Part shown: one piece after another, positions 30,425-54,139 of the stretch
How positions within the stretch are numbered: position 1 is the stretch's first letter
Layout: every line of letters begins with the position of its first letter
Assembly (NCBI GenBank): GCA_964442185.1
Contig: CAYTWT010000257.1
Span: forward strand, 97,979 to 161,978
DNA from: an uncultured Acidobacteriota bacterium
Lineage (GTDB): Bacteria > Acidobacteriota > Vicinamibacteria > Fen-336
Direction: 5' to 3'
Length of the DNA: 64,000 nt
Made by a program: the position numbers and the translations under genes
The notes under the pieces: generated by a model
Told to the model about the DNA's origin: nothing
Seen by the model: only the letters and a program-made list of their open reading frames with translations
Database searches by the model: none

Positions 30425-30428
30425 GTTC

Positions 30429-38444: not shown

Positions 38445-39556
38445 GCCGGCAGGGAGCGCAAGGCCTCCCGCAGCGCCGCCACCACGGCGCCCACCTGCGC
38501 GTCAGTCATTTCCGGATAGATCGGCAGCGAGAAGATCTCCCGTGCCGCCTGCTCGGCCACGGGCAGATCGCCCGGCTTCCCGCCCAGGGATGCGAAGGCC
38601 GGTTGCAAGTGCAGCGGGATCGGGTAGTGGATCAGCGTGCCGACGCCACGCCCCTTCAAGGCGGCCATCAGCGAGTCGCGAAGTGCGTGGCGCACCACAT
38701 ACAGATGATAGACGGCGCGGGCGTACGGCTGTTCCTCGGGGAGCTGTAGCCCGATGCCCGCAAGGCCGTCCGCGTAAGCGGCGGCGATCTGCCGCCGCCT
38801 CCCGGTCCAGTTGGGCAGATGCCGGAGCTTCACGCGCAGGATCGCGGCCTGCATCTCGTCCAGGCGGCTGTTGATCCCGGAGAGCTCGTGCCGGTAGCGA
38901 TCGCTCTGCCCGCCGTTTCTGAGCTGGCGGAGTCGCGGCGCGAGCGAGAGGTCGTTCACCAGCACGGCGCCGCCGTCTCCGAAGGCGCCCAGGTTCTTGG
39001 TCGGATAGTACGAATGCGTTCCGAGGGCGCCGAGCGTTCCGACCGTCTGACCCTTGTACTCCGCGCCGTGGGACTGGCAGGCGTCTTCGACGACAACGAG
39101 ACCACGCCGTTCGGCGCTCTCGAGGATCGGATCGAGGTCGACGGGGTGGCCGTAAAGGTGCACCGGGAGGATCGCCCTGGTGCGCTTCGTGATCGCCCGT
39201 TCGACCGCGCCGGGCGCGAGGTTCAGCGTCCTGGGATCGAGGTCGGCGAACACGGGCCGCGCCCCCGCCCGCTCGATGGCGAGGGCGGTAAACGCCGCTG
39301 AGAGCGGCGAAGTGACGACCTCGTCGCCGCGCCCCACGCCCGTGGCCTCGAGCGCCAACTGGATGGCCTCCGTTCCATTCGCCACCGCCACCACGTCGGG
39401 GCAGCCCATCTGGGCCGCAAGCTCTCGTTCGAAGGCTTCATTCTCGGGACCGAGGATGAACCAGCCGGATTCCAGGACGCGCGCGATCGCGGCATCGATC
39501 TCGGCCCGGATCGGTGCCAGCTGGGCGCGGAAATCGCCGAACGGAACAGCGCTCAC
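38441..39556 (-). CDS. DegT/DnrJ/EryC1/StrS-family PLP-dependent sugar aminotransferase
   Basis: VANGTEAIQLAL...DACQSHGAEYKG...HSYYPTKNLGAFGDGG. GTG at 39556-39554 overlaps TGA 39555-39553 (verified). The ORF-track N-terminal 300 aa are artefact. Confidence 0.8.
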   Translation of the reverse strand: MSAVPFGDFRAQLAPIRAEIDAAIARVLESGWFILGPENEAFERELAAQMGCPDVVAVANGTEAIQLALEATGVGRGDEVVTSPLSAAFTALAIERAGARPVFADLDPRTLNLAPGAVERAITKRTRAILPVHLYGHPVDLDPILESAERRGLVVVEDACQSHGAEYKGQTVGTLGALGTHSYYPTKNLGAFGDGGAVLVNDLSLAPRLRQLRNGGQSDRYRHELSGINSRLDEMQAAILRVKLRHLPNWTGRRRQIAAAYADGLAGIGLQLPEEQPYARAVYHLYVVRHALRDSLMAALKGRGVGTLIHYPIPLHLQPAFASLGGKPGDLPVAEQAAREIFSLPIYPEMTDAQVGAVVAALREALRSLPA

Positions 39557-40548
39557 AGGTAGTGCTGCTTGTGGGCGCGATAGTAGGCGATGGTCTTTTC
39601 CAGGCCTTCGCGCAGACCGATGCGGGGCTTCCAGCCCAGCGCCGCATGGATCCGCGAGGCGTCGGCGTAGAAGTCGCCGATGTCGATGCGCTTCCGCTCG
39701 GGCGGAAACGGCGCCAGGCGCAGCGAGCCCTGGCCCGCGATCTCGATCATCAGCTTCGCCAGATCGGCGAGCGAAACCGGCGCCTCGCCACCGAGGTTGA
39801 AGACCTGGCCGTCGGCGGCCTGCATCGCCCCCGCACGCAAGAACGCATCGACCACGTCGTCGATGTAGTCGAAATCGCGGCGCTGGCTGCCGTCGCCGAA
39901 CAACTGGATCTCCTCGCCCAAGCTCACCTGGCGCACGAACCAGCCGATGAAGCCCTGGCGATTGTGGCGGATCAACTGGCGCGGACCGTAGCTGTTGGTG
40001 AGCCGCAACGAGGTGGTGCGGATGCCGTACACCGAGTGGTACACGAGGTGATACATCTCGCCCGAGATCTTGTTGATGCCATTCACGTCGATGGGCTGGA
40101 GCGGATGGGTTTCGTCGACGGGCAGTCGTTGGGGCTTTCCGTAGACCTGGCGGGTTCCCGCGTAGACGATCTTGAGGCCCGGGTTGCCCTTGCGCACGGC
40201 CTCGAGGATCGACAACTGGCTCCGGCAGTTGATCTCCAGGTCGGTGAACGGGTCCGTCATCGAATCGATGTGGCTCACCTGGCCCGCCAGGTTGAAGAGC
40301 AGCTCCTGGCCGAGTACCAGGTACTCCATGCCGTGGCCCCGAACGTCGGCGACGTTGATGCGGAGCTTGTCCTCGTAGCCTGCGAGGTTGAAGAGATTCC
40401 CGCCGTAGTCGGGGAGCAGGCTGTCGACCGCGGTGACGTCGGCGCCCAGATCGGCGAGCGTCCGGCACAGGTTCGAACCGATGAACCCGAGGCCGCCCGT
40501 GACCAGGACCTTGCGACCCCGGTAGAAATCGCGATGCGCCTCGCTCAA
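39553..40548 (-). CDS. NAD-dependent sugar 4,6-dehydratase/epimerase (SDR)
   Basis: FYRGRKVLVTGGLGFIGSNL...SGEMYHLVYHSVYG. TTG at 40548-40546 overlaps TGA 40547-40545 (verified). Confidence 0.75.
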   Translation of the reverse strand: MSEAHRDFYRGRKVLVTGGLGFIGSNLCRTLADLGADVTAVDSLLPDYGGNLFNLAGYEDKLRINVADVRGHGMEYLVLGQELLFNLAGQVSHIDSMTDPFTDLEINCRSQLSILEAVRKGNPGLKIVYAGTRQVYGKPQRLPVDETHPLQPIDVNGINKISGEMYHLVYHSVYGIRTTSLRLTNSYGPRQLIRHNRQGFIGWFVRQVSLGEEIQLFGDGSQRRDFDYIDDVVDAFLRAGAMQAADGQVFNLGGEAPVSLADLAKLMIEIAGQGSLRLAPFPPERKRIDIGDFYADASRIHAALGWKPRIGLREGLEKTIAYYRAHKQHYL

Positions 40549-41291
40549 CGCCGCCCCGCGGCGGCCTGGGCGGCGGGGGCCTTCAAGTGTTCCTTCCTCA
40601 CCACCAGCTCGAACCACAGCCGAGTCAGATCGACGAGCGTACGCGCGACGCGCGAGAAGTTGAAGAACTGGCTCTTGCCGTGGGAGCGGTGGTAGTGGTG
40701 CACGGGCACTTGCGCGATTCTAAAACCATGGTCCTGGACCTTCTTCATGAGCTCGACGCAGATCACGCCCGAGCTGCGCGTCAGGGTCACCTTTCGGAAG
40801 ATATCGCGTCGCATCAGGCGGAAGTCGCAGTCCACGTCCCGCAACCGCAGCCCGAACACGCTCCGCACGAACCAGTGATAGACGCGGCCGATCACGATCC
40901 GGTGCAGCGGATCGGAGCGGCCGATCTTGTAGCCGTTCACGAAATCGACGTCTGGGCCGAAGGCCTGGTAGAGTCTGGTCATCTCGCGCGGGTCGTACTG
41001 GGCGTCGCCGTCGGTGTAGAAGACCAGCTCCTTCGAGGCGGCTTCGAAGCCGCTGCGCAGCGCCCCGCCGTAGCCCCGGTTCTTCACGTGGTGAACGACC
41101 TTGAGCCATGGGAAGTGCTGGACCATCTCGTCCAGTAGCGCGCCCGTGTGGTCAGGGCCGCCGTCGTCGATCACGATCACCTCGTAGTCGTCGGCGATGC
41201 TGCGTGCCGTCATGTGGGCCGCGAGGCAGAGGCTCGCGATGGTGGCGGCGTCGTTGTAGGCGGGAAAGAAGATGGAGAGTGAGGGCTTCAC
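40545..41291 (-). CDS. GT2 polyprenyl-phosphate glycosyltransferase-like (DPM1/GtrB-like)
   Basis: SIFFPAYNDAATI...VIVIDDGGPDHTG...YTDGDAQYDP. Confidence 0.75.
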   Translation of the reverse strand: MKPSLSIFFPAYNDAATIASLCLAAHMTARSIADDYEVIVIDDGGPDHTGALLDEMVQHFPWLKVVHHVKNRGYGGALRSGFEAASKELVFYTDGDAQYDPREMTRLYQAFGPDVDFVNGYKIGRSDPLHRIVIGRVYHWFVRSVFGLRLRDVDCDFRLMRRDIFRKVTLTRSSGVICVELMKKVQDHGFRIAQVPVHHYHRSHGKSQFFNFSRVARTLVDLTRLWFELVVRKEHLKAPAAQAAAGRR

Positions 41292-41345
41292 GGGAAGAGC
41301 ACGCCTTTATGGAAAAAAGACGCTAACACGCGCGCTCTTTCGGGG

Positions 41346-43949
41346 TCAAACACGCCGCACCAGCAGGCTCGCAAGGCCCAGGCCCGCCACGCCGGCGAGG
41401 CCGAGGCCGACCATGAACCCGGGTGGCCGATGCCGAAGCTGCACGCGGTGCGTCCCAGGCCTGAGAACCACGCCCAGAGAGGCCTGGTTCACGCGCAGCA
41501 GAGGCGCCGACGTGTCGTCGAGTGAAGCGCTCCAGCCGGGATCCCAGCTCTCGGCGATCACCAGCACACCCGGACCCTCGGCGCGCACTTCGAGCGAGGA
41601 AGCCGAGGCGCTCACGACCGCGGCGCGCGAGGCGCGCCCGTCCGTGGGAAGGACGATGCCCGTGACATCGGAAGCGCTCACCAGCGCCTCGCGGCGGAGA
41701 TCGATGCCAGCCGTTTCGGGGATGCGCAGGTTTTCCACGACCGCGACATCCGTAGGCAAGACACGGAGCGACTCGACGACGTAGGCGCGTCCCTGCCCGC
41801 CGACGACTTCGTAGAGCCGGACCGACGGTGTCGCCGCCAGCTCGCGCAGGTGAGCTTCGTCGCTGACGTAGCCGCTCGCCAGTGATACCGGCGTGTAGCG
41901 TCCGGTGGCCGTATCCAGCAGCGCCATTCGCGCGAGCGTGAGCCGGCCACGGCCGGGTCCCCGGACGACGCGCACGCTGTCGACGTAGAAGCGCGAGGGC
42001 AGACGCAGGATGCCGAGATAGCGGTGCGCCGTGAAACCTCCAGGCCCGCGCCAACTTTCGAGGAGCGGGGCACGCTCATGGCGGACCAGCGGCCGGACAT
42101 CGGCGCGATCGAAGGCCCATTCGGCGGTCTCGAGGCCGGCGCGCAGCGGCAGGCGTGCCTCGCGACCGGAGGCGAGTCGTACCCGCACTTCCGCAACGAC
42201 TTCACCTTGCTCCAGCTCGACCGCGTCGGAAAGCCAGGACCCAAAGCGCAGCTCGGTGGCGGCGCTGAGCGGGACCGGGAAGGTGCGGCTCTCGCCAGGG
42301 CCGAGCACGAGGTCCAGGGTGTCGCCCAGGCCCCAACCGTCCGGCTCGGCGCGCAGCGCTGAGGAAGGCACCTGGAGCAGCCGCACGCCCTGTGCCGACA
42401 GCCGCGCCGGCTGCGAGCGCAAGAAGCCGCCGCTGAGCGTACCGCCCACCCCCATGCCATCCCAGGCAGCGCGGGTTCGCAGCGGGACCATCGGGTCGTA
42501 GCCCCCCGCGCTGCGCCGGCCACGCAGCGAGCCCAGGTTGCCGAAAGCGAGGTCGAGGGCCTCGAGGGCTGGCCAAGCGCGCGTCAAGCTCAGCACGCGT
42601 TCGCCCACGAGCGCCCCCATCGCGTGTTCGAGCGAGGCGCTCGTCGGCGTGCCGGCCTCGAGAACGCTGCGTGTCGGCGCGCTGTTCCACAGCCCGCGAG
42701 CATGGGGCTGAAGGAAGAAGGCCGCAGTGAAGGGTAGCAGCCACACGGCGGCGACGCCGGGCTGGGGCGAGCCGGCGAGCGTGAAGTACAGGATCATCGC
42801 CAGCGCCAGAACCCCCACGGCTCCCGCGAGCGTATCGGGGAGCGGTCCGAGTATGGCTGCCGAAACCGCCAGCCCCGCGCACGAGGCCAGCGAGGCAAAC
42901 AGCGTATAGGCTCGCAGACGCCGACCGAGCCCCTCGCGCCGTTCGGACCACTGCGCCGACAGCGACAAACCGGCCAGCACCGCCAGGGACAGATCGAAGA
43001 CGAGCGCCAGCGCCCCCGGCGCCGAGAGCGGCCCGCGTCCAAACTGCAAGGCGAGGCACAACCCGAGCGCCACGCCGAAGACGCGCACCGGCGTCTGCGT
43101 CAGCAGCAGCGGCAGCGCTGCGAGCGCGAACGCGGGCGCGGGTGAGTGGGAGACGTAGCGCAGGACGAGGCCGGTGAGGCCCGGGACGCCGGCCGACTCG
43201 GTCGGAAGCCCAGTCAGCGCCCGGCCTGCCTCTCGGGCCGCCAAAAGCGAGGGCAGCAACTGGGGTGCGGCGAGCAGGAAGCCGGCGCCGACCACGAGCA
43301 GGGACGTGAGGACGCGCGGTCGCGCGCCCGAGCCCCGAAACAAATGGCCCACGGCGAGCCGACCCACGACGAGCGCGAGCCCAGCGCGCCCGGCTTCGGG
43401 CGAGCCGGACAAGAACAACAGCGCGAGCGCGATGGCGAGCCCTGCGCTGCGCCGAGCGGTCGTCGCACGCATATGCCCCTCGGCCGCGAGCAACACGAGC
43501 GGCAGAAGTGGCGCGGCGACGATCGTGGCCGCGTCGTCCAGGTGCCCCACGAGATAGGGGCCAAGGCCGAAGCACAAGCCACCCACGTACGCGCCGATGC
43601 GATTTGTGCCGAGCCCTCGCAGATACACGAAGGTCAGCACCGCCGCCGCCGCCAGCGACGCGGTCAGCAGCAGTTGAAACGCGTCGAAAGGCGGCAGCCA
43701 CGCGAGCGCCAGCATCGGCGGATACAGCGCGCCGGGCCGGTACGCAGCCAGCAGTGGAGCGCCCGAGAAGATGGCACCGTTCCAGCTCGGCAGTTCGCCG
43801 TGGCGAAAGGCCTGCCACACGGCGGCGCGCAGGGGGAAGTGCAGGAATGCCCCGTCCCCGGGACTCACGATACGGCCTTCCAGCAGCGGCGGCGAGAGCG
43901 CTATGACCGGCGCCAGGGCCAGGAGGGCGAGGACCAGCCTCTCCCTCAC
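41346..43949 (-). CDS. YfhO-like large membrane protein (GT-C-type, probably uses polyprenyl-phosphate-sugar)
   Basis: 867 aa with an N-terminal polytopic domain, a central soluble domain and a C-terminal TM helix. ATGA-coupled to the upstream GT2, as in csbB-yfhO pairs (inferred). Confidence 0.55.
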   Translation of the reverse strand: MRERLVLALLALAPVIALSPPLLEGRIVSPGDGAFLHFPLRAAVWQAFRHGELPSWNGAIFSGAPLLAAYRPGALYPPMLALAWLPPFDAFQLLLTASLAAAAVLTFVYLRGLGTNRIGAYVGGLCFGLGPYLVGHLDDAATIVAAPLLPLVLLAAEGHMRATTARRSAGLAIALALLFLSGSPEAGRAGLALVVGRLAVGHLFRGSGARPRVLTSLLVVGAGFLLAAPQLLPSLLAAREAGRALTGLPTESAGVPGLTGLVLRYVSHSPAPAFALAALPLLLTQTPVRVFGVALGLCLALQFGRGPLSAPGALALVFDLSLAVLAGLSLSAQWSERREGLGRRLRAYTLFASLASCAGLAVSAAILGPLPDTLAGAVGVLALAMILYFTLAGSPQPGVAAVWLLPFTAAFFLQPHARGLWNSAPTRSVLEAGTPTSASLEHAMGALVGERVLSLTRAWPALEALDLAFGNLGSLRGRRSAGGYDPMVPLRTRAAWDGMGVGGTLSGGFLRSQPARLSAQGVRLLQVPSSALRAEPDGWGLGDTLDLVLGPGESRTFPVPLSAATELRFGSWLSDAVELEQGEVVAEVRVRLASGREARLPLRAGLETAEWAFDRADVRPLVRHERAPLLESWRGPGGFTAHRYLGILRLPSRFYVDSVRVVRGPGRGRLTLARMALLDTATGRYTPVSLASGYVSDEAHLRELAATPSVRLYEVVGGQGRAYVVESLRVLPTDVAVVENLRIPETAGIDLRREALVSASDVTGIVLPTDGRASRAAVVSASASSLEVRAEGPGVLVIAESWDPGWSASLDDTSAPLLRVNQASLGVVLRPGTHRVQLRHRPPGFMVGLGLAGVAGLGLASLLVRRV

Positions 43950-44794
43950 TTACGATCCTGTCCCGCCGCGATCTGCTCCGAGATGAGCCCGAACAGGAAG
44001 ACCACTACCGCCAGCTGGATCAGCAGCGCCGAGCCCATCGGGATCTTGCCGCGGTTCGCCACGTTCCAGGCGCCGTAGGCTGCGCCCAACACGAAGGCCA
44101 GGGCGCTTACCGGGAAGAACACGCGCAGCGGGCTGTAGAGCGTGACGATCTTGAGAATGATGAGCAGGAAGCGCGTCCCGTCGCGCAGCACTCTGACCTT
44201 GCTCGTGCCCACGCGCGGGCGCGCCCGGACCCTGACGAAATCCACAGACAGCCCTGCCTTGAGGAACGCGAGGCAGGACGTGGTTGGATAGGAGAAACCG
44301 TTGGGAAGCAGGGGCAGGATCTCGAGCAGCCGTTCACGGCGCGCCGCGCGGAAGCCGGAGGTGAGATCGGGGATCGGCCGCCCCGTGAGCCAGGAGGCGA
44401 GCGCCTTGAAGAGCGCGTTGCCGAGCGCGCGCGTGAAGGACTGGTCCTTCGACGCCCGGGCGCCGATCACCATGTCGAAGCTGCCGATGGGCCCGTAGAT
44501 CGCAGGCGCCTCGCCGGGATCGTGTTGGCCGTCGGCATCCATCAGCAGCACGACCTCGCCGCGCGCCTCGCGGATCCCGGTCTTGACCGCAGCCCCGTTG
44601 CCCTTGTTGTAGGGGTGGCGAACCACGCGGGCGCCTGCAGCCGTCGCACGCGCGGCCGTCGCATCCGAAGAACCGTCGTCGACGACGAGAACCTCGCGGA
44701 AGCCACCCTCCAGCAGCGGCGCGAGCACGCCTGCGATGCCGTCCTCTTCATTGAAGGCGGGAATCACGACCGAGACGTCCTTCGCCTCAGCCAC
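43946..44794 (-). CDS. GT2 polyprenyl-phosphate glycosyltransferase (CsbB/GtrB-like)
   Basis: VSVVIPAFNEEDGI...VLVVDDGSSDATA...LMDADGQHDP plus C-terminal TM helices. Confidence 0.8.
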   Translation of the reverse strand: MAEAKDVSVVIPAFNEEDGIAGVLAPLLEGGFREVLVVDDGSSDATAARATAAGARVVRHPYNKGNGAAVKTGIREARGEVVLLMDADGQHDPGEAPAIYGPIGSFDMVIGARASKDQSFTRALGNALFKALASWLTGRPIPDLTSGFRAARRERLLEILPLLPNGFSYPTTSCLAFLKAGLSVDFVRVRARPRVGTSKVRVLRDGTRFLLIILKIVTLYSPLRVFFPVSALAFVLGAAYGAWNVANRGKIPMGSALLIQLAVVVFLFGLISEQIAAGQDRK

Positions 44795-45749
44795 GGCGCT
44801 CGGGGGCCCGGAGCTCAGCCTTGCGGATCCGGTAGAGCAGGTCTTCGAGCAGCTTGCGGTTGCTCGCGATCAGGTCGGCCATGATCCCCCACTGCAGGGT
44901 CTGGAAGCCGAGGATCAAGAGCAGCACCGAGAGGATCGCGGACTGCAGGTGGCCGCGGATGTCGCCCAGCCACCAGAAGTAGGCGTAGCGCAGGCCCAGC
45001 AGGGCGCCGGCGGAGAACAGCGTCGATCCGAGCAGGACGAAGACCTTGAAGGGCTCGTACATCGCGTAGATGCGGAGGATCGTGGCGCCGCTGCGCTTCA
45101 CGTAGTCCCAGGTGGAAGAGAACAACCGCGACGGTCGCGTCTGCTTCGCCTCGATCGGCAGATGGGCGACCGCCATCTTTTTCTTGCCGGCCTGGATGAT
45201 CGACTCGAGCGTGTAGGTGAACTCGCTCACGATGTTGATGCGCAAGGCGGCGTCGCGCGTCAAGGCACGGAACCCGCTGGTCGTGTCCGGCACGTCGGTG
45301 CCAGAGACCTTGCGCACGACCCAGGATCCCAGCTCTTGCAGGCGGCGCTTGCCCCACGAGAAGTGGGCCACCTCGCTCACACGCCGATCGCCGATCACCA
45401 TGTCCGCTTCGCCGGCCAGGATCGGTGCGATCAGCAGCGGAATATCCGCCGCCGGATACTGGTTGTCCGCGTCGGTGTTCACGATGATGTCGGCGCCCAG
45501 GTGCACGCAGCTATCGAGGCCGGCCATGAAGACGTAGGCAAGGCCCCTACGTTTCGGGAACCGGACGACGTGGTCGGCGCCGTGTTCCCTGGCGACGGCG
45601 CTGGTCCGATCCGTGGAGCCGTCATCGATTACCAGCACCTCGACCGCGTCGATGCCGGGAATCTGTCGTGGGATCGAACGCAGCGCCTCGGGAAGTGTCG
45701 CTTCCTCGTTGAGACACGGGATCTGCACGATGAGTTTCACGCGCCGCAA
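44787..45749 (-). CDS. GT2 polyprenyl-phosphate glycosyltransferase (GtrB-like)
   Basis: LIVQIPCLNEEATL...VLVIDDGSTDRTS...NTDADNQYP plus C-terminal TM helices. Confidence 0.8.
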   Translation of the reverse strand: MRRVKLIVQIPCLNEEATLPEALRSIPRQIPGIDAVEVLVIDDGSTDRTSAVAREHGADHVVRFPKRRGLAYVFMAGLDSCVHLGADIIVNTDADNQYPAADIPLLIAPILAGEADMVIGDRRVSEVAHFSWGKRRLQELGSWVVRKVSGTDVPDTTSGFRALTRDAALRINIVSEFTYTLESIIQAGKKKMAVAHLPIEAKQTRPSRLFSSTWDYVKRSGATILRIYAMYEPFKVFVLLGSTLFSAGALLGLRYAYFWWLGDIRGHLQSAILSVLLLILGFQTLQWGIMADLIASNRKLLEDLLYRIRKAELRAPERRG

Positions 45750-45776: not shown

Positions 45777-46703
45777 TTAACTGCGCTGTCGACGCTGGAG
45801 GGCCCCGCGCCAGCCCGAATAGGCGCGGAACTGCCGCAGGTTATCGAGGATCGCCGCCGCCTGGTTCCGGCCGGTTGGGCGCTTCGGGAGCAGCGCCTCG
45901 CTGGCGCGGACCGCGCCCGCCGCCGCGGGCGTTTCCGGGGCGAGTGCCGGCGGGAGTGAGCGGAAGCCATCGTCCGTCGGGACACCCGCCGCGAAGACGG
46001 CGATTGAGCCCGCGAGCGTCAGAAACGACGAGCCCGAGGCGCCCTTGCCCAGCTCGAAGGCCCACGGGTCGATCTCGATGGGGGTCGGGTCTTCCCGCCA
46101 GTAAAGGTGAAAACGGTAACCGGCCTCAAGGGTTGCGGTGCGGATCGTCTTGCGCGCAGTGGCCCGCGCCTGGTACTCGCGGACGATCGGCCCGCGCACG
46201 ATCAGGAGCAGGTCTTTCGCCTCGACCGAAAGCCGAGCGTCGCCGAATCGCAGCCACAGTGCTTCAGCCGCGGCCGCCCCCCCCAGCGCGAGGCGCGGCG
46301 TTTCGGCCGCGCGCGTTTCGGCCTCGGGGATGGCGAGCGCTCTCACGCCCAGCGTCACCAGCCTTGCCGCTTCGGCCTCGGCCTCCGGGAGCGTCAGGAC
46401 GCGATGCAGTTGGGCGCCGCCGCGCCGCAGCCGCTGGTCGGCCTCGTAGGCTGTGAGGCCCAGGGCGCGGGCCAGAAGCGGCGCCGCGATGCCCAGGGCC
46501 TCGAACACCACCAAGCCGCGCTCGAGGTGTTTCGCCGCTGCCGGCACGCCCGGGACTCCAAGCGCCTGTGCGGCCGCGCTGGCGCTCTCCTGCGCCGCGG
46601 CCGAGAGCCCTGCGCCGCAGTAGAGGCAGCGGGCCTGCGCCACGGCGACCGGCCTTCGGCAAGAAGGGCAGCTAGACGTTGAAGCGGAAGTTGATGACAT
46701 CTC
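45777..46703 (-). CDS. Hypothetical protein with an N-terminal CPxC...CxxC zinc ribbon
   Basis: SCPSCRRPVAVAQARCLYCGAGL. No recognisable domain beyond that. The start is ambiguous (ATG 46754 or 46703). Confidence 0.5.
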   Translation of the reverse strand, partial: EMSSTSASTSSCPSCRRPVAVAQARCLYCGAGLSAAAQESASAAAQALGVPGVPAAAKHLERGLVVFEALGIAAPLLARALGLTAYEADQRLRRGGAQLHRVLTLPEAEAEAARLVTLGVRALAIPEAETRAAETPRLALGGAAAAEALWLRFGDARLSVEAKDLLLIVRGPIVREYQARATARKTIRTATLEAGYRFHLYWREDPTPIEIDPWAFELGKGASGSSFLTLAGSIAVFAAGVPTDDGFRSLPPALAPETPAAAGAVRASEALLPKRPTGRNQAAAILDNLRQFRAYSGWRGALQRRQRS

Positions 46704-47751
46704 CGTCGCGAACGACGTAGTCCTTGCCCTCGAGGCGCAAGCTGCCCTTCTCACGACAAGCCGCGAGCGACCCCGCGCCGATCAGATCGTCGAAGGCGAC
46801 CACCTCGGCCCGGATAAAGCCGCGCTCGATGTCGGAGTGGATCTCGCGCGCCGCTGGCTGCGCCTTGGTGCCCTTGCGGAGCGTCCAGGCGCGGCACTCG
46901 TCCTCGCCAGCCGTCAGGAACGAGATCAGGCCGAGCAGCGCGTAGGAGGTGCGGATCACTCGATCGAGCCCCGGCTCTTCGAGGCCGAGGTCCTCGAGAA
47001 AGGCCTTCGCATCCTCGGGGGAGAGCTCCGACATCTCGCTCTCGATCGTGGCTGAGACTGGGCACAGCGCCAGATGCGGGCGGCTCGCCACGAAGCCCAC
47101 CAGGCCGGAGGCGTCCAGGAAGGCCGCGGCGTTCTTGATCTGGTTTTCGCCCATGTTGATGGCGAGCAGCACGGGCTTTTCCGACAGGAACGAGTAGTTG
47201 CGCAGGCGGCGCCGCTCTTCGTCGTCGAACCCGATATCTCGGAGCGGCCTTTCCGCTTCGAGCGCTTCTTTCAGCTTGAGGAAGATCACCCGTTCCGCGA
47301 CGTCTTCAGCGTGATTGGCCTTCTTGATGCTGGCGCCCAAGCGCTCGAGGCGTTTCTCCACGGCGCCGAGGTCGGCGAGGATCAGTTCGAGGTCGAGCAT
47401 CGACGCGTCACGGAGCGGGTCGACCGAGCCCTCAGGATGGGGAACCACGTCCGACTCGAAGGCCCGCACGACATGGACCAGCGCATCGATGTTCCGCAGC
47501 GCTGGAAGATCCACGAGCTCCGCGCCCTCGCCCTTGGCGACACCGGGAACGTCCACGTACTCGATGCTAGCGAGCGTCTTCTTCTTGGGGCTGTAAAGCT
47601 TCGAGAGGGCCTCGACTCGAGGGTCTGGGACCCTGGCGATCCCTACGCGTGGCTCGGGGCGCCCGGAGGGAGGTGCCTGGGGGGCGCCGGTGAGGAGTTG
47701 GAACAGCGTGCTCTTGCCGACGGAGGAGAGACCGATGATGCCGACTTTCAT
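46672..47751 (-). CDS. ychF: Redox-regulated ATPase YchF (Obg-family GTPase)
   Basis: MKVGIIGLSSVGKSTLF ... C-terminal TGS-like DGDVINFRFNV. Confidence 0.9.
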   Translation of the reverse strand: MKVGIIGLSSVGKSTLFQLLTGAPQAPPSGRPEPRVGIARVPDPRVEALSKLYSPKKKTLASIEYVDVPGVAKGEGAELVDLPALRNIDALVHVVRAFESDVVPHPEGSVDPLRDASMLDLELILADLGAVEKRLERLGASIKKANHAEDVAERVIFLKLKEALEAERPLRDIGFDDEERRRLRNYSFLSEKPVLLAINMGENQIKNAAAFLDASGLVGFVASRPHLALCPVSATIESEMSELSPEDAKAFLEDLGLEEPGLDRVIRTSYALLGLISFLTAGEDECRAWTLRKGTKAQPAAREIHSDIERGFIRAEVVAFDDLIGAGSLAACREKGSLRLEGKDYVVRDGDVINFRFNV

Positions 47752-47814
47752 GCGGGGGGATTATAGCGTCCGGGCCTGGCCGAGGCCGGTGTAGTAACAT
47801 CGTGCAGCCTCAGC

Positions 47815-49350
47815 ATGCTGCTCACGCCGCTCCTGGCAACACTTCTCGCCGCGTCGCAGACGCCTTCGCCGAGCCCCTCTGCGGCGCCGGCCGCCGGGCC
47901 GGTGATCCTCTTCCTGATGGACAACTCGGCCTCGCTCCCGCCCCTCGATCCAGAGGAGAAACGGGTCCAGGCACTCGAGCAGATGTTCGGCTTCTTGCAG
48001 GGCCAGCCCTACCGGTTGATCCTGTTCGGCGGCCGGCGGGAGATCTTCGTCGACGACGCTTCGCGCTACCGGAACAACGGTCAGTGGACGGATTTCTACT
48101 TCGCCTTCGAGGAGGCGCGGGAACTGATGCAGTCGTACCCGAATGGCACCGAGTTTCGCATCGTGCTGCTGACCGACGCGATCGTCGATCCAGGTCCAGA
48201 GGACTGGACCGACATGGGTGTGCCCAGGGGCGAGGACCTGCGCGCGTACTCGATCCAGAAGACGCTGGCGCTGCTGCGCGAACTCAAGGTGTCGCTGTAC
48301 GTGATCCTGGTGGGCGACATTCCCACCCAGGGTGTCGTCCCCGGGGATCCCGAGCAGTCCCCGGCGCTGATCCTCGACATGGTACGCACCGCCAACGGCG
48401 CTTCAGCCTCGCCGCGGGCTCAGACGCTGTCGTCCTTCTTCAAGGACGACGGGTTCCTGTTGAAGAAATTCGTGTATCGCATCGAGCCTCACGAAGGACT
48501 GAGGAAGTTGGAGCCGGTCGTACGTCGGATCGTGGCCGCGCCTCGACCCTCGGTCGAACTCAAGTTTCTATCCGGCCTGATCTTGCCCCTCGCGCTCTTC
48601 ATCCTGTTGCTGCTGGGGATCCTGGTTCGCTCCTTCCCGGGCCCTGGCGATGTCGAGATGATCGAGCTGGCAACGCTCACGCCGGTCCATGTGGCAGTGG
48701 ACAAGCTGCATCGGCTCGAGGACGGCGGCTGGGGAACGACCGGCCTCACGCTGCTCGGCGACGCCCGCGGCGCCGTCGCAACGCTGACCTACCAGGTGCC
48801 GCCGATCGACCTCAGCGGCATCGGCATCGACGCCAACGGCCTCGACGCGGTGACGACGAGGCTGCTGCCCCTGGGCATCGACGAACTGCGCCAGGCGCTC
48901 GAGGACTTCATGGATGGAGGCTCGAAGGACGAGAAGATCTACGCCCTGAATCTCGATTACGTGGCGAAGAACTTCGACTCGGCCGAGGCTGCACGGATCC
49001 TGACCACACCGACCGCGGATCACCGCAAGCTCAAAGCGCTCGATTTCGTGAGGGCAAAGGCCCACCTGATCTCGAACGGCGAGCTGCGTCGCAAGCTCAC
49101 CGAAGCGCGCGTGCATCTCGTCGGCTACGGCAAGGACGCGGAGCGCAAGGACCTGCAACCCGGGGCGCCGGTGCGGATCGGTCGCTACGGCTTCGTGGTC
49201 AAGGAAGTGGCGAAAGGCGGCCGCAAGGATGTCCGTGTCGTGCTCTACTACGACCGCATCCCGTCGCTGCTCGGGCTCAAGAACTGGCTCCCAGACGGCC
49301 TGCAGCGGCTGGTGCGCTTCCGGCGCAGCTCTCAGCGCGTCGTCCGCTAG
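47815..49350 (+). CDS. von Willebrand factor A domain protein with a signal peptide and a central TM helix
   Basis: Signal-like N-terminus, VILFLMDNSASL (MIDAS DxSxS), and a mid-protein hydrophobic helix (LILPLALFILLLLGILV). Confidence 0.65.
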   Translation: MLLTPLLATLLAASQTPSPSPSAAPAAGPVILFLMDNSASLPPLDPEEKRVQALEQMFGFLQGQPYRLILFGGRREIFVDDASRYRNNGQWTDFYFAFEEARELMQSYPNGTEFRIVLLTDAIVDPGPEDWTDMGVPRGEDLRAYSIQKTLALLRELKVSLYVILVGDIPTQGVVPGDPEQSPALILDMVRTANGASASPRAQTLSSFFKDDGFLLKKFVYRIEPHEGLRKLEPVVRRIVAAPRPSVELKFLSGLILPLALFILLLLGILVRSFPGPGDVEMIELATLTPVHVAVDKLHRLEDGGWGTTGLTLLGDARGAVATLTYQVPPIDLSGIGIDANGLDAVTTRLLPLGIDELRQALEDFMDGGSKDEKIYALNLDYVAKNFDSAEAARILTTPTADHRKLKALDFVRAKAHLISNGELRRKLTEARVHLVGYGKDAERKDLQPGAPVRIGRYGFVVKEVAKGGRKDVRVVLYYDRIPSLLGLKNWLPDGLQRLVRFRRSSQRVVR

Positions 49351-49489
49351 ACCCCGGAGCAGCCCTGGGCTCTTGGTGAGCGCCGGCGGGATCGTCGTGA
49401 CCCTCGCCGCGTAGCGTCCGGAGAGCCGCTGCAGGTGATTTGCCGCCCTCCCGCGCCCCCTCTACACTGTCGCTCCGGACCCGACTCGA

Positions 49490-50416
49490 ATGCTTCCACC
49501 CATCCTCGTCGCGGGCCTCGACGGGCGCAGCCTCCTCTTGGAGGCGCCGCTGCTGCGTCGTGAGGGGTACCCCGTCGAGGAGTTGCCCTCGGCGCACGAC
49601 CTGTTCGCGGTGCTGGCCTCCCAGGGCGCCTGCCGGCTCGTGGTCCTGGGCCCGCGCCTGCCGGACCTCAACCTGGCCGAGAGCATTCGCCGGATCCGCA
49701 GCTCCCCGCTGACCCGCCACGTCTCGGTTCTCGCCATCCTGCCCGCGGGCGAACCGGAGGACCTCGACGGCGCGGCCGTCGAAGCCGGGGCCAACGCGGT
49801 GATCCGGCGGCCGCTCGAGCAGGCGCGGCTCGAAGCGTGGCTGGCGAAGCTGCTGGCGGTGCCGCGGCGCGTCGAGGCACGGGTCCCGGTGCAGGGTCAC
49901 GTCGTCGGGACGCCAAAGGCCGCTAGCGGGCATTTCTACGGACTCACGCGCAACCTGAGCGTCAACGGGATGCTGCTCGCGAGCCCGGTGCGCCTCGCCC
50001 ATCCCGACGTCGAGCTGGAGTTCGGCCTGTCAGAGGCGCGCCCGGCGCTGCGCGCCCTGGGCCGGGTCGTGCGGGAGGCTCCGGAGATCGCCTGGCCGTA
50101 TCTCGGCTATGGCGTCGAGTTCCTGTTCATCCCGGAGGAGAGCATCATCAGCATCTCGTCCTTCATCGAGCGCGCCGTGCTCGCCTCGCTCCAGCGCATC
50201 AGCTCGGCGCCGATTCACGCGACGCTGCGGCGGGAGTTCTGGGTCTATGAGATCCTGAAACCGATCCCCGGCCCGGACGGCTGGCAGGCTGAGATCCGGC
50301 GCGCGCCCCGCGAAGCCTGGCGGCCGGGAGCGGCGGGCCCGTTCTACGTCGTTCTGGGCCGCTCGCCTGAAGATGCGCTTGCGCAGGCGCGGGGCTTCAT
50401 CCAGCGCCACGGCTAG
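49490..50416 (+). CDS. REC-like (degenerate receiver) plus PilZ-like domain protein
   Basis: N-terminal CheY-like fold (ILVAGLDGRSLLLEA...VLGPRLPDLN) and a PilZ-like RxxxR / N-x-S-x-x-G segment (GLTRNLSVNGMLL). Confidence 0.5.
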   Translation: MLPPILVAGLDGRSLLLEAPLLRREGYPVEELPSAHDLFAVLASQGACRLVVLGPRLPDLNLAESIRRIRSSPLTRHVSVLAILPAGEPEDLDGAAVEAGANAVIRRPLEQARLEAWLAKLLAVPRRVEARVPVQGHVVGTPKAASGHFYGLTRNLSVNGMLLASPVRLAHPDVELEFGLSEARPALRALGRVVREAPEIAWPYLGYGVEFLFIPEESIISISSFIERAVLASLQRISSAPIHATLRREFWVYEILKPIPGPDGWQAEIRRAPREAWRPGAAGPFYVVLGRSPEDALAQARGFIQRHG

Positions 50417-50417
50417 G

Positions 50418-51425
50418 GTGCCGCGCGTCAGCGTCCTGCTGCCGGTGCGGGACGCTGCCGCGACACTCCCTGAGGCGCTCGCGTCGCTACGCGCGCAGAC
50501 GCTCCCGGATCACGAGGTCGTCGTGATCGACGACGGGTCGCGTGACGGCAGCGGCGAGATTCTGGAAGCCGCGGCCCGCGAGGATTCGCGCCTGCGGGTG
50601 CGTCAGCGCGCGGCTGGGGGTCTCGTCGCGGCGCTCAACGAGGCGCTGCATGCGGCAGCTTCGCCGCTCGTCGCGCGCATGGATGCGGACGACGTCGCGC
50701 ATCCCTCGCGCCTCGAACTCCAGGCGGCTCGGCTTGCCTCGGACGATCGCACCGACGTTCTCGGCTGCCGTGTGCGATGGCTCGGGGAGCCCGCGACCGG
50801 CGCCGAGGGCATGCGTGCCTACGTCGGCTGGCTGAACGGGCTCATCGATCACGACGCCATCGTCCGCGACCTGTTCGTGGAGTCGCCCCTGGCGCATCCC
50901 TCGGTCATGATGCGCACGGCTGCGCTGCGAAGGCTCGGTGGTTATCGCGTCTTTGACGGCCCGGAGGACTACGACCTCTGGCTCCGGGCCTACGAGGCGG
51001 GCCTGCGTTTTGGCAAGTGCCCGGAGACGCTGCTCGACTGGCGTGATCGCGCCGCGCGTCTCACGCGGACGGACCCGCGCTACGGCGTGGAGCGGTTTCG
51101 AGCTCTGAAGGTCGCCGCCCTTGGCCGCGGGCCGCTCGCTGGCGGCCGGCGCTCCGTCGTCTGGGGCGCGGGCCCCGTGGGCAAGGCGCTCGCGCGTGCC
51201 CTCGCGCACGCGGGCCACGCGGTCGCCGCGTTCGTGGAAGTGGACGTGGACAAGATCGGCCAACGGATCCAGGGAGCGCCGGTCGTAGGCCTCGAACGGG
51301 CCCTCCACTTCCCGGGCGCCTTGCACCTGGCGGCCGTGGGTCAGCCGGGCGCGCGAGCCCGGATCCGGGCCGCGGCGGCACGCCTCGGCCTCGCCGAAGG
51401 CCGGGACCTGATCGCTCTCGCCTGA
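50418..51425 (+). CDS. GT2-family glycosyltransferase
   Basis: VSVLLPVRDAAATL...VVVIDDGSRDGS...DADDVAHP. GTG at 50418, 1 nt after the upstream TAG. Confidence 0.7.
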   Translation: MPRVSVLLPVRDAAATLPEALASLRAQTLPDHEVVVIDDGSRDGSGEILEAAAREDSRLRVRQRAAGGLVAALNEALHAAASPLVARMDADDVAHPSRLELQAARLASDDRTDVLGCRVRWLGEPATGAEGMRAYVGWLNGLIDHDAIVRDLFVESPLAHPSVMMRTAALRRLGGYRVFDGPEDYDLWLRAYEAGLRFGKCPETLLDWRDRAARLTRTDPRYGVERFRALKVAALGRGPLAGGRRSVVWGAGPVGKALARALAHAGHAVAAFVEVDVDKIGQRIQGAPVVGLERALHFPGALHLAAVGQPGARARIRAAAARLGLAEGRDLIALA

Positions 51426-51440
51426 GGTGTCGTCTGCCCC

Positions 51441-51452
51441 TTGCTATAATCC
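51441..51452 (+). promoter_or_regulatory. Extended -10 element (TGcTATAAT) directly upstream of nth
   Basis: ttgcTATAAT at 51441-51450 with the GTG codons at 51453-51464. This implies a leaderless or very short-leader transcript. Confidence 0.4.
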
Positions 51453-52130
51453 GTGGCCGTGGTGCGTGCCTCCCTGGACCGCCGGCTCGCCGTGGTCGCA
51501 ACTCGCCTCGCGGCCGTTTACGGCCGGCCGCGCCGGCGGCTCTCCGATCCGCTCAGCGGTCTGGTCGAGACCGTTCTCTCTCAGAACACGAGCGACGTGA
51601 ACAGCGGCCGCGCCTACGCCTCGCTGCGCGCGGCATTCCCGACCTGGGAAGCGCTGGCCGCGGCCCAGCCCGCTCGGATCGAGAGTGTGATCCGCGCGGG
51701 TGGCCTCGCCCGCCTCAAGAGCCGACGCCTCACGGGCTTGCTCGCGGCCGTGAAGCAGCGCGAGGGCCGTTACGATCTGCGCCGCCTGCGCCGTCTCACG
51801 CCGGAGCACGCGGACGCGCGCCTGCGCGGGCTCCCCGGAGTCGGACCCAAGACCCGCGCCTGCGTGTTGCTATTCAACTGCGGCCATCCTGCGTTCCCGG
51901 TGGACACGCATGTCCACCGCGTGAGCCTGCGCCTCGGGCTCTTGCCGCCAAAGACCGATGCCGCGAAGGCTCACCAGCTTCTCGCTCCCGCGGTACCCGT
52001 GGGGCGCCATCTGGATCTGCACCTCAACCTGATCCGGCTGGGACGTGAAGTGTGCCGCGCGCGCGAGCCGCGCTGCGCCGTCTGCCCGCTCGCGTCAGGC
52101 TGCGCGCACGCCCAGCGGCAGGGCGCATGA
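51453..52130 (+). CDS. nth: Endonuclease III (HhH-GPD base-excision glycosylase with a 4Fe-4S cluster)
   Basis: HhH-GPD motif (LPGVGPKTRACVLLF...D) and C-x6-C-x2-C-x5-C (CRAREPRCAVCPLASGC). Confidence 0.85.
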   Translation: MAVVRASLDRRLAVVATRLAAVYGRPRRRLSDPLSGLVETVLSQNTSDVNSGRAYASLRAAFPTWEALAAAQPARIESVIRAGGLARLKSRRLTGLLAAVKQREGRYDLRRLRRLTPEHADARLRGLPGVGPKTRACVLLFNCGHPAFPVDTHVHRVSLRLGLLPPKTDAAKAHQLLAPAVPVGRHLDLHLNLIRLGREVCRAREPRCAVCPLASGCAHAQRQGA

Positions 52131-54139
52131 TCGGCGGTGCGCTGCTCAGCCTGGTTCTCGCCGCGGCTGGCGCGAGCGCCCCGGTCACCCGCCTCGACAA
52201 AATGGCGCGCCTGGCATCGCTCGAAGACCGGCGCACGGCGGGCGCTGGCGAACTCGAACGCCTGATCCGCGATCCCGACAAGGGCGTGCGGCGGCGTGCC
52301 GCGCTGGCGGCGGGGCGTATTGCCGATTCCGGCGTGGTTCCGGCTCTCGTCGACCTCATGAACGACCCGGATCCGGAGCTGCGGCAAATGGCGGCCTTCG
52401 GCCTGGGCCTGATCGGCGACCGGCAGGCCGTGCAGCGCCTCGTCGCGTCGCTCAAGGATGTCGACGCCGTCGTGCGCGCGCGTTCGGCCGAGGCCCTGGG
52501 CCGGATCGGCGATGTCCGCGCCGCGGGCGATGTCGTGCAAATGATCCTCGAGGCGATGCCGAAGGGCGCGGCCGTGGTGAGCGTGCGCGGCGACGATCCG
52601 GGCAACCCGTACGATCCCTGGCTGGAGTTACGGCTGGGGCTGTTTGCGCTGGCGCGGCTCAAGGACGCGAAGGCCGCCGAGGCCGCCTTGCTCTCGAACG
52701 GCCGCGCCCGCTTCGACTGGTGGGCGGCGGCCTTCACAGCGATGCGCCTCGAGAGCCCGCTGCTCCGGCCCGCGCTGCTCGCGGCAGCGGAGTCGGACGA
52801 TCGGCTGGCGCGCGCGTACGCCGCCCACGGACTCGGCGCGCTCAAGGACGCTTCGGCCATCGACACGCTCGCGACACTGGCGCGTGACCTTGATGAAACA
52901 GTGGTGGTGAATGCGCTCCGGGCGCTGACCACGATCGGCGACCCACGCGGCACGGCGATTGCTGCGTCCACACTGGCGTCGCCAAGCCTCACGATCAAGC
53001 GCGAGGCGCTCTTGGCGTTGGCCGCGCTGCCCCCCGATCGCGGCCTGCGCGGGCGTGTCGTTCCCTACGTCGGCCACGAGCAGGCCGTGATCCGCGCCGC
53101 GGCGCTCTCGGCGCTAGCCAGGATCGACCCTGACGAGTTCGCCCTGGTGCTCTCGGGCCTCGACCCCGACCCCGCTTGGTTCGTGCGCGGAGCCCTTGCC
53201 ACGGCGCTGGGCGAGCGCGCCGACGAGCAGAGCGTCGGGATCCTGTTTGGACTGCTGAAGGATTCCGACGTGCGGGTCCTGCCCTATGTTCTCGCGGCGA
53301 TGCGCAAGGCGCGCGGCAGCGACGCTGCCGAAACTCTCAAGGGTCATCTCGATCATCCAGACATGGCGGTGCGCACCGCAGCCATCGAGAACCTGGCCCA
53401 GTTGAAGATGCCGGGCGTGGGCGCCAGCCTGGTCGCGGCGCTCAAGGCGGGCGCCAGCGACCGCGAGATCGACGCGCGCGCGGCCGCCATTGCCGGCCTC
53501 GCCGAGCAGAAGGACGCTGCAGCCAAGGCCGCACTGCGCGAGGCGGCGGCGAGCGACCCCTCGCGCGTGCTGCGCGTGCAGGCGGGCGCAGCCCTCGTCG
53601 CCCTCGGCGAGACGCCTCCGGCGCCCGGTCCCGAGGACCTGCTGCGCCCGAGCCTCGACTACCGCGAGGCGATGGCCCCTTTCGACCCGCCGTCTGGCTC
53701 GACGCTCTACACGCCGCGCGCGATCCTCCACACGCGCAAGGGCAAGATCGAGATCCACCTCAATGTCGTCGAAGCGCCGCTCACCGCACAGAACTTCATC
53801 GACCTGGCGCGCCGTGGTTTCTACGACGGGCTCAGCTTCCATCGCGTGGTGCCGGGCTTCCTGGTCCAGGGTGGCTGCCCGCGCGGCGACGGCAACGGCG
53901 GGCCCGGGTACATGCTGCGTTGCGAGATCGGCGAAAGGCCCTATGGCCGCGCCGCCGTGGGCATGGCGCTCTCCGGGAAGGACACCGGCGGGAGCCAGTT
54001 CTTCATCACGCACGTGCCGACGCCGCACCTGGACGGCGGCTACACGCTCTTCGGGTGGGTGGCGAGCGGCATGGACGTCGTCGACCAGATTCAGCCCGGC
54101 GACACGATCGACAAGGTGGAGATCTGGGACGGGAGGTAG
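52127..54139 (+). CDS. Secreted HEAT-repeat (PBS-lyase type) protein fused to a C-terminal cyclophilin-type peptidyl-prolyl isomerase
   Basis: Signal-like MIGGALLSLVLAAAGASA, about 12 HEAT-like repeats (…GRIADSGVVPALVDLMNDPDPELRQMAAFGLG…), and a C-terminal cyclophilin (FHRVVPGFLVQGG...GSQFFIT). ATG 52127 overlaps the nth TGA (ATGA). Confidence 0.75.
   Translation: MIGGALLSLVLAAAGASAPVTRLDKMARLASLEDRRTAGAGELERLIRDPDKGVRRRAALAAGRIADSGVVPALVDLMNDPDPELRQMAAFGLGLIGDRQAVQRLVASLKDVDAVVRARSAEALGRIGDVRAAGDVVQMILEAMPKGAAVVSVRGDDPGNPYDPWLELRLGLFALARLKDAKAAEAALLSNGRARFDWWAAAFTAMRLESPLLRPALLAAAESDDRLARAYAAHGLGALKDASAIDTLATLARDLDETVVVNALRALTTIGDPRGTAIAASTLASPSLTIKREALLALAALPPDRGLRGRVVPYVGHEQAVIRAAALSALARIDPDEFALVLSGLDPDPAWFVRGALATALGERADEQSVGILFGLLKDSDVRVLPYVLAAMRKARGSDAAETLKGHLDHPDMAVRTAAIENLAQLKMPGVGASLVAALKAGASDREIDARAAAIAGLAEQKDAAAKAALREAAASDPSRVLRVQAGAALVALGETPPAPGPEDLLRPSLDYREAMAPFDPPSGSTLYTPRAILHTRKGKIEIHLNVVEAPLTAQNFIDLARRGFYDGLSFHRVVPGFLVQGGCPRGDGNGGPGYMLRCEIGERPYGRAAVGMALSGKDTGGSQFFITHVPTPHLDGGYTLFGWVASGMDVVDQIQPGDTIDKVEIWDGR

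Follow-up and report, generated by a model that had tools for sequence, protein, structure and literature searches.

The DNA analysed here is a window of 64,000 nucleotides (nt) from an uncultured Acidobacteriota bacterium of the class Vicinamibacteria (contig CAYTWT010000257.1), with a base composition of about 68-72% G+C. An open reading frame at 49490-50416 on its plus strand, which begins at the first start codon past the upstream stop (ATG 49490), encodes a protein of 308 amino acids (aa) that combines a receiver-like (REC) domain, a PilZ domain and a third, unannotated C-terminal domain (CTD), and that is a candidate receptor for cyclic di-GMP (c-di-GMP). Its stop codon (TAG, 50414-50416) is separated by a single base from GTG 50418, which opens a gene for a family-2 glycosyltransferase (GT2) of 335 aa ending at 51425. 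The 1-nt separation reported in an earlier note on this DNA is correct, as are its coordinates and sequence, and the string quoted there, GLTRNLSVNGMLL, begins at residue 151 of the 308-aa protein. An alternative in-frame ATG at 50373 would yield a GT2 of 350 aa and an overlap of 44 nt with the PilZ gene. The GTG is favoured as the start because homologues of the GT2 are mostly 333-336 aa long, conservation begins at this codon, and related loci have their equivalent start between -4 and +12 nt from the PilZ stop.

The PilZ domain matches Pfam PF07238 above its cut-off (E 1.5e-8), with residues 126-227 covering profile positions 2-101 of 102, and a precomputed match to the same family is carried by all 120 of the 120 homologues listed. 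The canonical motifs of such domains have been defined as RxxxR and [D/N]hSxxG, and c-di-GMP binding is retained by PilZ domains inside fusion proteins (Galperin & Chou, 10.1101/814665). Both motifs are present in the 308-aa protein (Table 1). No substitution of R127, R131, S157 or G160 occurs in an alignment of 84 sequences, in which the conservation of R126 and N155 is 90% or higher. In a set of 37 sequences, comprising the window protein and those of 36 genome loci, G160 is kept in all 37 and R127, R131 and S157 in 36 each; residue 155 is Asn in 36 and Asp in one, and residue 126 is Arg in 26, being otherwise Gln, His, Val or Gly. The PilZ hallmarks proposed in the earlier note are therefore real: the profile matches and RxxxR stays in place on alignment, the two points on which that note had said its reading would fall. 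To judge from these alignments, the domain looks canonical, with its ligand-binding residues apparently under purifying selection, and the protein probably binds c-di-GMP.

A model of the whole protein built with AlphaFold 2 (AF2; pLDDT 84, pTM 0.57) contains three folded units, namely the REC domain, a PilZ unit of barrel plus helix, and the CTD. The barrel is made up of six strands (133-138, 149-156, 160-165, 173-178, 187-196 and 205-213) and is followed by a helix at 216-235, and the RRxxxR motif falls within an interdomain linker modelled with low confidence (pLDDT 58-71 in the blocks spanning residues 121-150). In receptors of the YcgR/PlzD type, ligand binding at this linker re-orients two domains. 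Given the position of RRxxxR in the linker before the barrel, ligand binding is expected to re-orient the REC and PilZ domains of the 308-aa protein as well.

The N-terminal half is receiver-like and lacks a phospho-acceptor, as had been claimed. The Pfam Response_reg profile (PF00072), which had been suggested as a check, scores 23.0 bits against a cut-off of 30.2, and a precomputed match to it is carried by a minority of homologues; the receiver assignment comes instead from the AF2 model, in which residues 5-123 adopt a (beta-alpha)5 fold and the receiver part reaches pLDDT values above 90. In Foldseek, this part superposes on CheY, BfmR, VicR and DivK with target-normalised TM-scores (TMt) of 0.75-0.84. 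The conserved Asp that was to be looked for is a Gly: the position of CheY D57 is occupied by G54 in 37 of 37 sequences, with the same correspondence in an alignment to PleD, while T87 is replaced by Leu, Ile, Val or Met and K109 by R107, the latter again in all 37. Since the equivalents of D57, T87 and K109 are all replaced, the domain is classed as a pseudo-receiver, apparently a fixed one whose phosphorylation site has been permanently lost, and the invariant Gly at the D57 position means that phosphorylation is not the input.

The third domain, of about 70 aa, had no place in the earlier account, although residues 237-308 form the most conserved portion of the protein in three alignments (I242, T245, R247, W251, E268, R271, W277, G280, P284, V287, V288 and F303). 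Modelled alone by AF2, the CTD folds into five strands and a terminal helix with high confidence (pLDDT 93.9, pTM 0.83). It has no match in Pfam, Foldseek searches of the PDB and BFVD gave no hit at E <= 0.05, and hhalign shows no relation to the PilZ and REC parts of its own protein.

Table 1. Features of the PilZ and GT2 genes and of their neighbours (positions in the window)
Feature	Coordinates	Strand	Evidence or detail
Pseudo-receiver (REC-like) domain, residues 1-123	49490..49858	+	Gly54 at phospho-acceptor Asp position; AF2, Foldseek, alignment
PilZ domain, residues 124-236	49859..50197	+	PF07238, 35.4 bits (cut-off 22.5); secondary structure from AF2
RRxxxR motif, R126 R127 V E A R131	49865..49882	+	Linker between REC helix 5 and PilZ barrel
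[D/N]hSxxG motif, N155 L S157 V N G160	49952..49969	+	Alignments
Unannotated C-terminal domain, residues 237-308	50198..50413	+	Alignments, AF2
GT-A catalytic domain, family-2 glycosyltransferase	50418..51122	+	PF00535, 102 bits
C-terminal Rossmann-like domain of GT2	51135..51422	+	GAGPVG at residues 250-255; TIGR03570 and VioB matches
VWA/TM protein, 511 aa, first gene of conserved operon	47815..49350	+	Weak VWA_2, DxSxS, one transmembrane segment
Endonuclease III-like (HhH-GPD) gene	51453..52130	+	Pfam HhH-GPD, E 2.6e-15
HEAT-repeat and cyclophilin protein, last conserved gene of block	52127..54139	+	HEAT_2, 193 bits; Pro_isomerase, 128 bits

The GT2 gene encodes a Glycos_transf_2 domain (PF00535, cut-off 23.3 bits, E 4.5e-29) with its DxD motif at D89-A-D91. 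The best sequence relatives in the PDB, namely the chondroitin synthase K4CP, 3bcv, GalT1, heparosan synthase, TarS/TarP and ArnC, are ordinary GT-A enzymes. The top NCBIfam model, that of Bacillus subtilis EpsE, scores 95 bits against a cut-off of 450, and none of the NCBIfam equivalogs comes near its cut-off. A scan for transmembrane (TM) segments found no 19-residue window at a Kyte-Doolittle (KD) value of 1.6 (maximum 1.22), and a regular expression for Q..RW gave zero matches. Because it lacks both a TM segment and QxxRW, the GT2 is predicted to be a soluble transferase of the non-processive type and not a synthase of the BcsA/Alg8 type, and the analogy with a polysaccharide step gated by BcsA PilZ or Alg44, which had been drawn from the sequence, is overstated as far as this enzyme is concerned.

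The enzyme also carries a Rossmann-like C-terminal extension that the earlier note had passed over. Its last ~95 residues resemble the N-terminal domain of the NeuD/PglD/VioB sugar acetyltransferases, and the left-handed beta-helix is absent. TIGR03570 is matched over profile positions 3-83 of 202 (E 8e-6, 25.6 bits against a cut-off of 160.8), residues 5-75 of VioB (7txp) align at E 0.006, and PglB (4m98) is also listed. With only the N-terminal part of TIGR03570 matched, the GT2 shares a NeuD-type Rossmann domain (hence GT2-NeuD_N below) but is not a member of that family.

Several hundred full-length homologues of the PilZ protein (305-315 aa) were found, and every one with a named source is from a Vicinamibacteria or Acidobacteriota metagenome. 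Among species-representative genomes, a scan found 36 loci, all in metagenome-assembled genomes (MAGs) of the Vicinamibacteria type and none in a cultured isolate, which together with 24 metagenome loci gave 60 main-family loci for synteny mapping. The operon is found only in the Vicinamibacteria-type lineage. One of the 36 loci, with a complete block, is in a MAG labelled 'uncultured Hyphomicrobium sp.' (L031, CAXMOH010000468.1), where it is probably a mis-binned contaminant. The conserved block spans ~10 kb, with two DPM1-like GT2 genes, a hypothetical gene and ychF on one strand, and, on the divergent strand, the genes for a VWA/TM protein, the REC-PilZ-CTD protein, GT2-NeuD_N, an optional Nth (endonuclease III) or GNAT acetyltransferase, and a HEAT-cyclophilin protein. 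The gene order is identical when loci are sampled from the GT2 side.

Within this block, the GT2 gene lies directly 3' of the PilZ gene in 44 of the 54 informative loci, and with one exception the gaps in the genome loci analysed fall between -4 and +30 nt. On the 5' side, 46 of 52 loci have the VWA gene immediately before the PilZ gene, and a gap of 1-21 nt is frequent there. The slot that follows the PilZ gene may hold the GT2 gene, the GT2 and Nth genes, the GT2 and GNAT genes (three loci: L042, L044 and L022), a GNAT gene alone, or nothing. The loci with a GNAT gene, whether in place of the GT2 gene or behind it, belong to one sub-clade. A GNAT gene beside a REC-PilZ gene recalls Myxococcus xanthus PixB, a PilZ-PilZ-acetyltransferase protein, and the resemblance may be coincidental.

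Beyond the main family, an exhaustive search of representatives at 50% identity returned 12 matches below 1e-30. A sister branch at 33-38% identity (P0249, P0254, P0262 and P0268; L037-L039) shares the three-domain layout and likewise has Gly where CheY has D57, and its CTD is without the WRPG loop. More distant are many REC-PilZ proteins of 220-240 aa that have no CTD and are 27-36% identical to the query, some of them with the phospho-acceptor Asp (P0282, P0290) and some without it. Further REC-PilZ modules are fused to methyl-accepting chemotaxis protein (MCP) or Ser/Thr-kinase domains.

A number of established systems share parts of this arrangement. REC plus PilZ was already among the architectures listed when PilZ was first described in 2006 (10.1101/814665). 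PixA of M. xanthus likewise holds a receiver and a PilZ domain in one protein, but in PilZ-REC order and with a phosphorylatable Asp180 (PMC8316039), in contrast to the invariant Gly and the third domain of the present family. YcgR/PlzD (VCA0042) resembles the 308-aa protein in having RRxxxR in the linker that joins an N-terminal domain to the PilZ barrel; here, however, the N-terminus has the CheY fold and is not PilZN (the PilZN/YcgR-N profiles PF07317 and PF12945 do not match the protein), a CTD is added, and the operon has no flagellar context. The cellulose synthase BcsA likewise combines a GT2 with PilZ and has its glycosyl transfer gated by c-di-GMP, yet the PilZ domain is fused in cis to a processive enzyme with eight TM helices and QxxRW, none of which is seen at this locus.

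For a receptor and a glycosyltransferase made as separate proteins, the precedents are Alg44/Alg8 and PelD/PelF (PMC8461298). In the alginate system of Pseudomonas aeruginosa, the PilZ protein Alg44 is proposed to control a separate GT2, Alg8, from the same operon, using RxxxR for binding (PMC8461298, PMC4436075). Unlike the 308-aa protein, Alg44 is membrane-anchored, with a periplasmic membrane fusion protein (MFP) domain and no REC domain or CTD; Alg8 is a processive synthase with multiple TM helices, unlike the soluble GT2 without QxxRW described here; and the present operon lacks polymer-export genes. Separate polypeptides, which the earlier note had offered as a contrast to Alg44, are no departure from its logic, since Alg44 and Alg8 are already separate (PMC8461298, PMC4436075). 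In the Pel system, the c-di-GMP receptor PelD and the soluble glycosyltransferase PelF are assembled with PelE and PelG on a membrane scaffold (PMC8461298); PelD differs from the 308-aa protein in being membrane-embedded and in sensing through a degenerate GGDEF I-site, and PelF belongs to GT4. PelD/PelF, in which a membrane-associated receptor complex recruits a soluble transferase, offers the closest working analogy for the trio of VWA/TM protein, PilZ protein and soluble GT2, and Alg44/Alg8 the closest PilZ precedent. In the literature searched, no relevant link between PilZ, Acidobacteria and glycosyltransferases was found, nor any description of the three-domain family, its CTD, or its association with GT2-NeuD_N and a VWA protein in Vicinamibacteria. 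REC-PilZ fusions and trans-acting PilZ partners of GT2 enzymes are known already, and the 308-aa protein is a variant within this known class of receptors, uncharacterised and specific to its lineage.

The preferred interpretation is of a three-domain c-di-GMP receptor in the cytosol that acts in trans as an adaptor; the likeliest partners of this 308-aa protein are encoded in its own operon, with the GT2 as the leading single candidate. The chances of this interpretation appear evenly balanced. Taken separately, the idea that the partner is encoded in the operon stands at about even odds, and specific gating of the GT2 by the PilZ protein is possible and rather doubtful. By analogy with YcgR/PlzD, BcsA and Alg44, c-di-GMP would bind at the linker with RRxxxR and the strand with NxSxxG and thereby turn the pseudo-receiver against the PilZ barrel, and the altered surfaces of the REC domain, the CTD or both would change how a partner protein is engaged. 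The GT2 might then be brought to the membrane, or become active there, along with the VWA/TM protein, as the soluble PelF does with PelD. In its most far-reaching form, which is unlikely, the proposal holds that a dedicated soluble c-di-GMP adaptor, with a dead receiver and a new domain of ~70 aa flanking PilZ, switches a soluble, non-processive GT2 on or off or docks it onto the VWA protein, that the CTD would be the output module, and that the result would be a lineage-specific gated step in envelope glycan modification in Acidobacteriota.

Several observations weigh against a dedicated PilZ-GT2 pair. In 9 of the 54 informative loci, no GT2 gene follows the PilZ gene: four pass directly from it to the HEAT-cyclophilin gene (L017, L021, L025 and L054), and in five a GNAT acetyltransferase of ~160 aa takes the place of the GT2 (L040, L041, L043, L047 and L050). 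The VWA gene, for its part, is absent from three loci (L009, L012 and L020). Residue-by-residue inspection showed the PilZ motifs, G54 and the CTD to be intact in these three and in L017, L021 and L025. The conserved adjacency of PilZ and GT2 genes is itself weak evidence, because the entire block, the housekeeping gene ychF included, is syntenic across the clade, and the adjacency may be inherited rather than selected. Similarly, tight packing is a trait of the operon and not of this pair, since the gaps at the VWA-PilZ junction are often as small and those around the endonuclease III gene are small too. The loci are also phylogenetically non-independent, some being near-duplicates, so that the counts describe arrangements and not events. 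In the sister branch, R131 is replaced by Gln, Phe or Ala, and in two of the three short contigs recovered for it (L038 and L039 out of L037-L039) the place of a GT2 gene downstream is taken by a gene for an OmpR-type regulator.

Apparent gene fusions were considered as Rosetta-stone evidence and rejected. Seven calls in the 50%-identity library appear to join REC-PilZ to GT2 (P0245, P0259, P0301, P0286, P0247, P0345 and P0256) and three appear to join VWA to REC-PilZ (P0307, P0277 and P0300). Their alignments are patchy, with missing segments and partial GT2 Pfam matches, and PilZ is undetected in P0245. Given this patchy alignment to the separate proteins, they probably stem from frameshifts in high-GC assemblies and lend the pair no support.

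For the co-occurrence of the two genes, which the earlier note had asked to see checked, the outcome is therefore mixed: the GT2 gene usually stands beside the PilZ gene, but GT2-less loci exist and the whole block is syntenic. The same applies to the claim that a c-di-GMP-binding partner gates the GT2. The intact PilZ motifs and the GT2 gene packed directly behind them support its premises, whereas synteny, the GT2-less loci and the linkage of the VWA gene, which is at least as tight, make gene order a poor guide to control by the sensor. That the sensor controls the transferase is best treated as a hypothesis, on which the comparative data are neutral.

One alternative, unlikely though it seems, is that the real partner is the VWA/TM protein, through its cytoplasmic domain of ~230 aa, or another envelope component, with the GT2 a mere neighbour in a variable slot. 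The VWA protein has a signal-like N-terminus, a MIDAS-like DxSxS motif (DNSAS at residue 36), a TM segment at 245-278, the only one predicted among the VWA, PilZ and GT2 proteins, and the unannotated C-terminal domain of ~230 aa. Its match to Pfam VWA_2 is under cut-off (E 8.6e-4), and it has no match in NCBIfam or among PDB sequences; its 764 homologues, named hypothetical or VWA, are all of the Vicinamibacteria type, and the VWA and PilZ families are similar in size and share the same clade restriction. The upstream position of the VWA gene at the frequency and spacing given above, together with the changing occupancy of the slot behind the PilZ gene, favours this alternative, as does the finding that, under strict criteria, nine informative loci have VWA without GT2 and five have GT2 without VWA (three clear absences and two in which the VWA gene is displaced or fragmentary). 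However, the PilZ protein is intact in the three loci without a VWA gene, the VWA-PilZ gap in the window is 139 nt compared with 1 nt between PilZ and GT2, and the topology of the VWA protein is a prediction.

Equally improbable is that the PilZ protein works as an independent c-di-GMP effector with targets encoded elsewhere, for example in motility or polarity, as for YcgR, MapZ and PixA, and that its adjacency to the GT2 gene is inherited synteny. Conservation of the whole ~10-kb block with ychF, the equally tight packing of unrelated genes and the different downstream gene of the sister branch all fit such an effector, as does the widespread occurrence of two-domain REC-PilZ proteins in other contexts, and for single-domain PilZ adaptors it is common to have targets that are not linked to them (PMC11250160). 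Against this, three clade-specific genes (VWA, PilZ and GT2-NeuD_N) travel together, they adjoin a large envelope-glycosylation cluster, and the gaps between them are compatible with co-translation. A structural or scaffolding pseudo-receptor that no longer binds c-di-GMP, like PlpA or the eponymous PilZ, is highly improbable: the sister branch kept the three-domain fold after losing R131, so that the scaffold need not be lost with part of the motif, R126 is Gln or His in 9 of 37 sequences, and some PilZ proteins with acceptable motifs have binding-independent functions (PixA; PMC8316039), but the invariance of R127, R131, S157 and G160, with N155 nearly so, is what selection for ligand binding would be expected to produce.

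In soil, Vicinamibacteria are an abundant group of Acidobacteriota for which hardly any experimental genetics exists, and we know of nothing reported on their use of c-di-GMP. The operon is a compact candidate for experiment, offering a probable receptor with intact motifs, two candidate partners alongside it, and a well-folded CTD that no library recognises. If the receptor did gate the GT2, an ordinary soluble GT-A enzyme would join the membrane synthases (BcsA, Alg8 and PgaCD) through which c-di-GMP controls the making of glycans. If the GT2 should prove ungated, the locus would serve as a useful warning that tight spacing inside a syntenic block is not the same as functional coupling.

An Rfam scan of the entire window, including the 139-nt gap 5' of the PilZ gene, found no family at gathering score, and a search for sigma-70-like promoters over 47600-52300 found none, so a regulatory RNA or promoter in that gap is unsupported. 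A motif scan of the window for GGDEF and EAL found no such genes, only chance EALxR strings. Downstream, the endonuclease III gene begins 27 nt past the GT2 gene, and its TGA overlaps ATG 52127 of the next gene (ATGA). Present in 5 of the 37 loci with enough downstream sequence, it is an occasional and functionally unrelated occupant of the operon slot and a control for the density of gene packing in this region. A perfect TATAAT lies at 51444-51449, 3 nt before its GTG in a genome of ~70% G+C, with no -35 match found, and could be the -10 box for a leaderless or downstream-initiated transcript. The HEAT-cyclophilin protein that follows has a signal-like hydrophobic N-terminus and is encoded downstream in nearly all loci; the fusion of HEAT repeats to a cyclophilin peptidyl-prolyl isomerase is unusual and is kept throughout the clade.

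Upstream of the operon, a minus-strand envelope-glycosylation cluster occupies 33498-45749. It encodes a GT9 heptosyltransferase-like protein, a GT4, an 867-aa PMT_2-type GT-C, an NAD epimerase/dehydratase, a 252-aa GT2, an 866-aa YfhO-like membrane protein, and two DPM1/AglJ-like (polyprenyl-phosphate-sugar-synthase-like) GT2s with C-terminal TM helices, and looks like a polyprenyl-phosphate-sugar 'three-component' glycosylation system. The surroundings of the PilZ/GT2 operon are thus rich in glycan genes, yet ychF intervenes and the operon is transcribed divergently from the cluster. Between ychF and the DPM1-like GT2 genes in most loci, and at 45777-46754 on the minus strand here, lies a gene for a 325-aa hypothetical protein with an N-terminal, zinc-ribbon-like CxxC...CxxC motif and no family match. 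Farther upstream, 27860-30454 on the minus strand encodes a full-length LigD (phosphoesterase, ATP-dependent ligase and primase-polymerase), a marker of bacterial non-homologous end joining (NHEJ).

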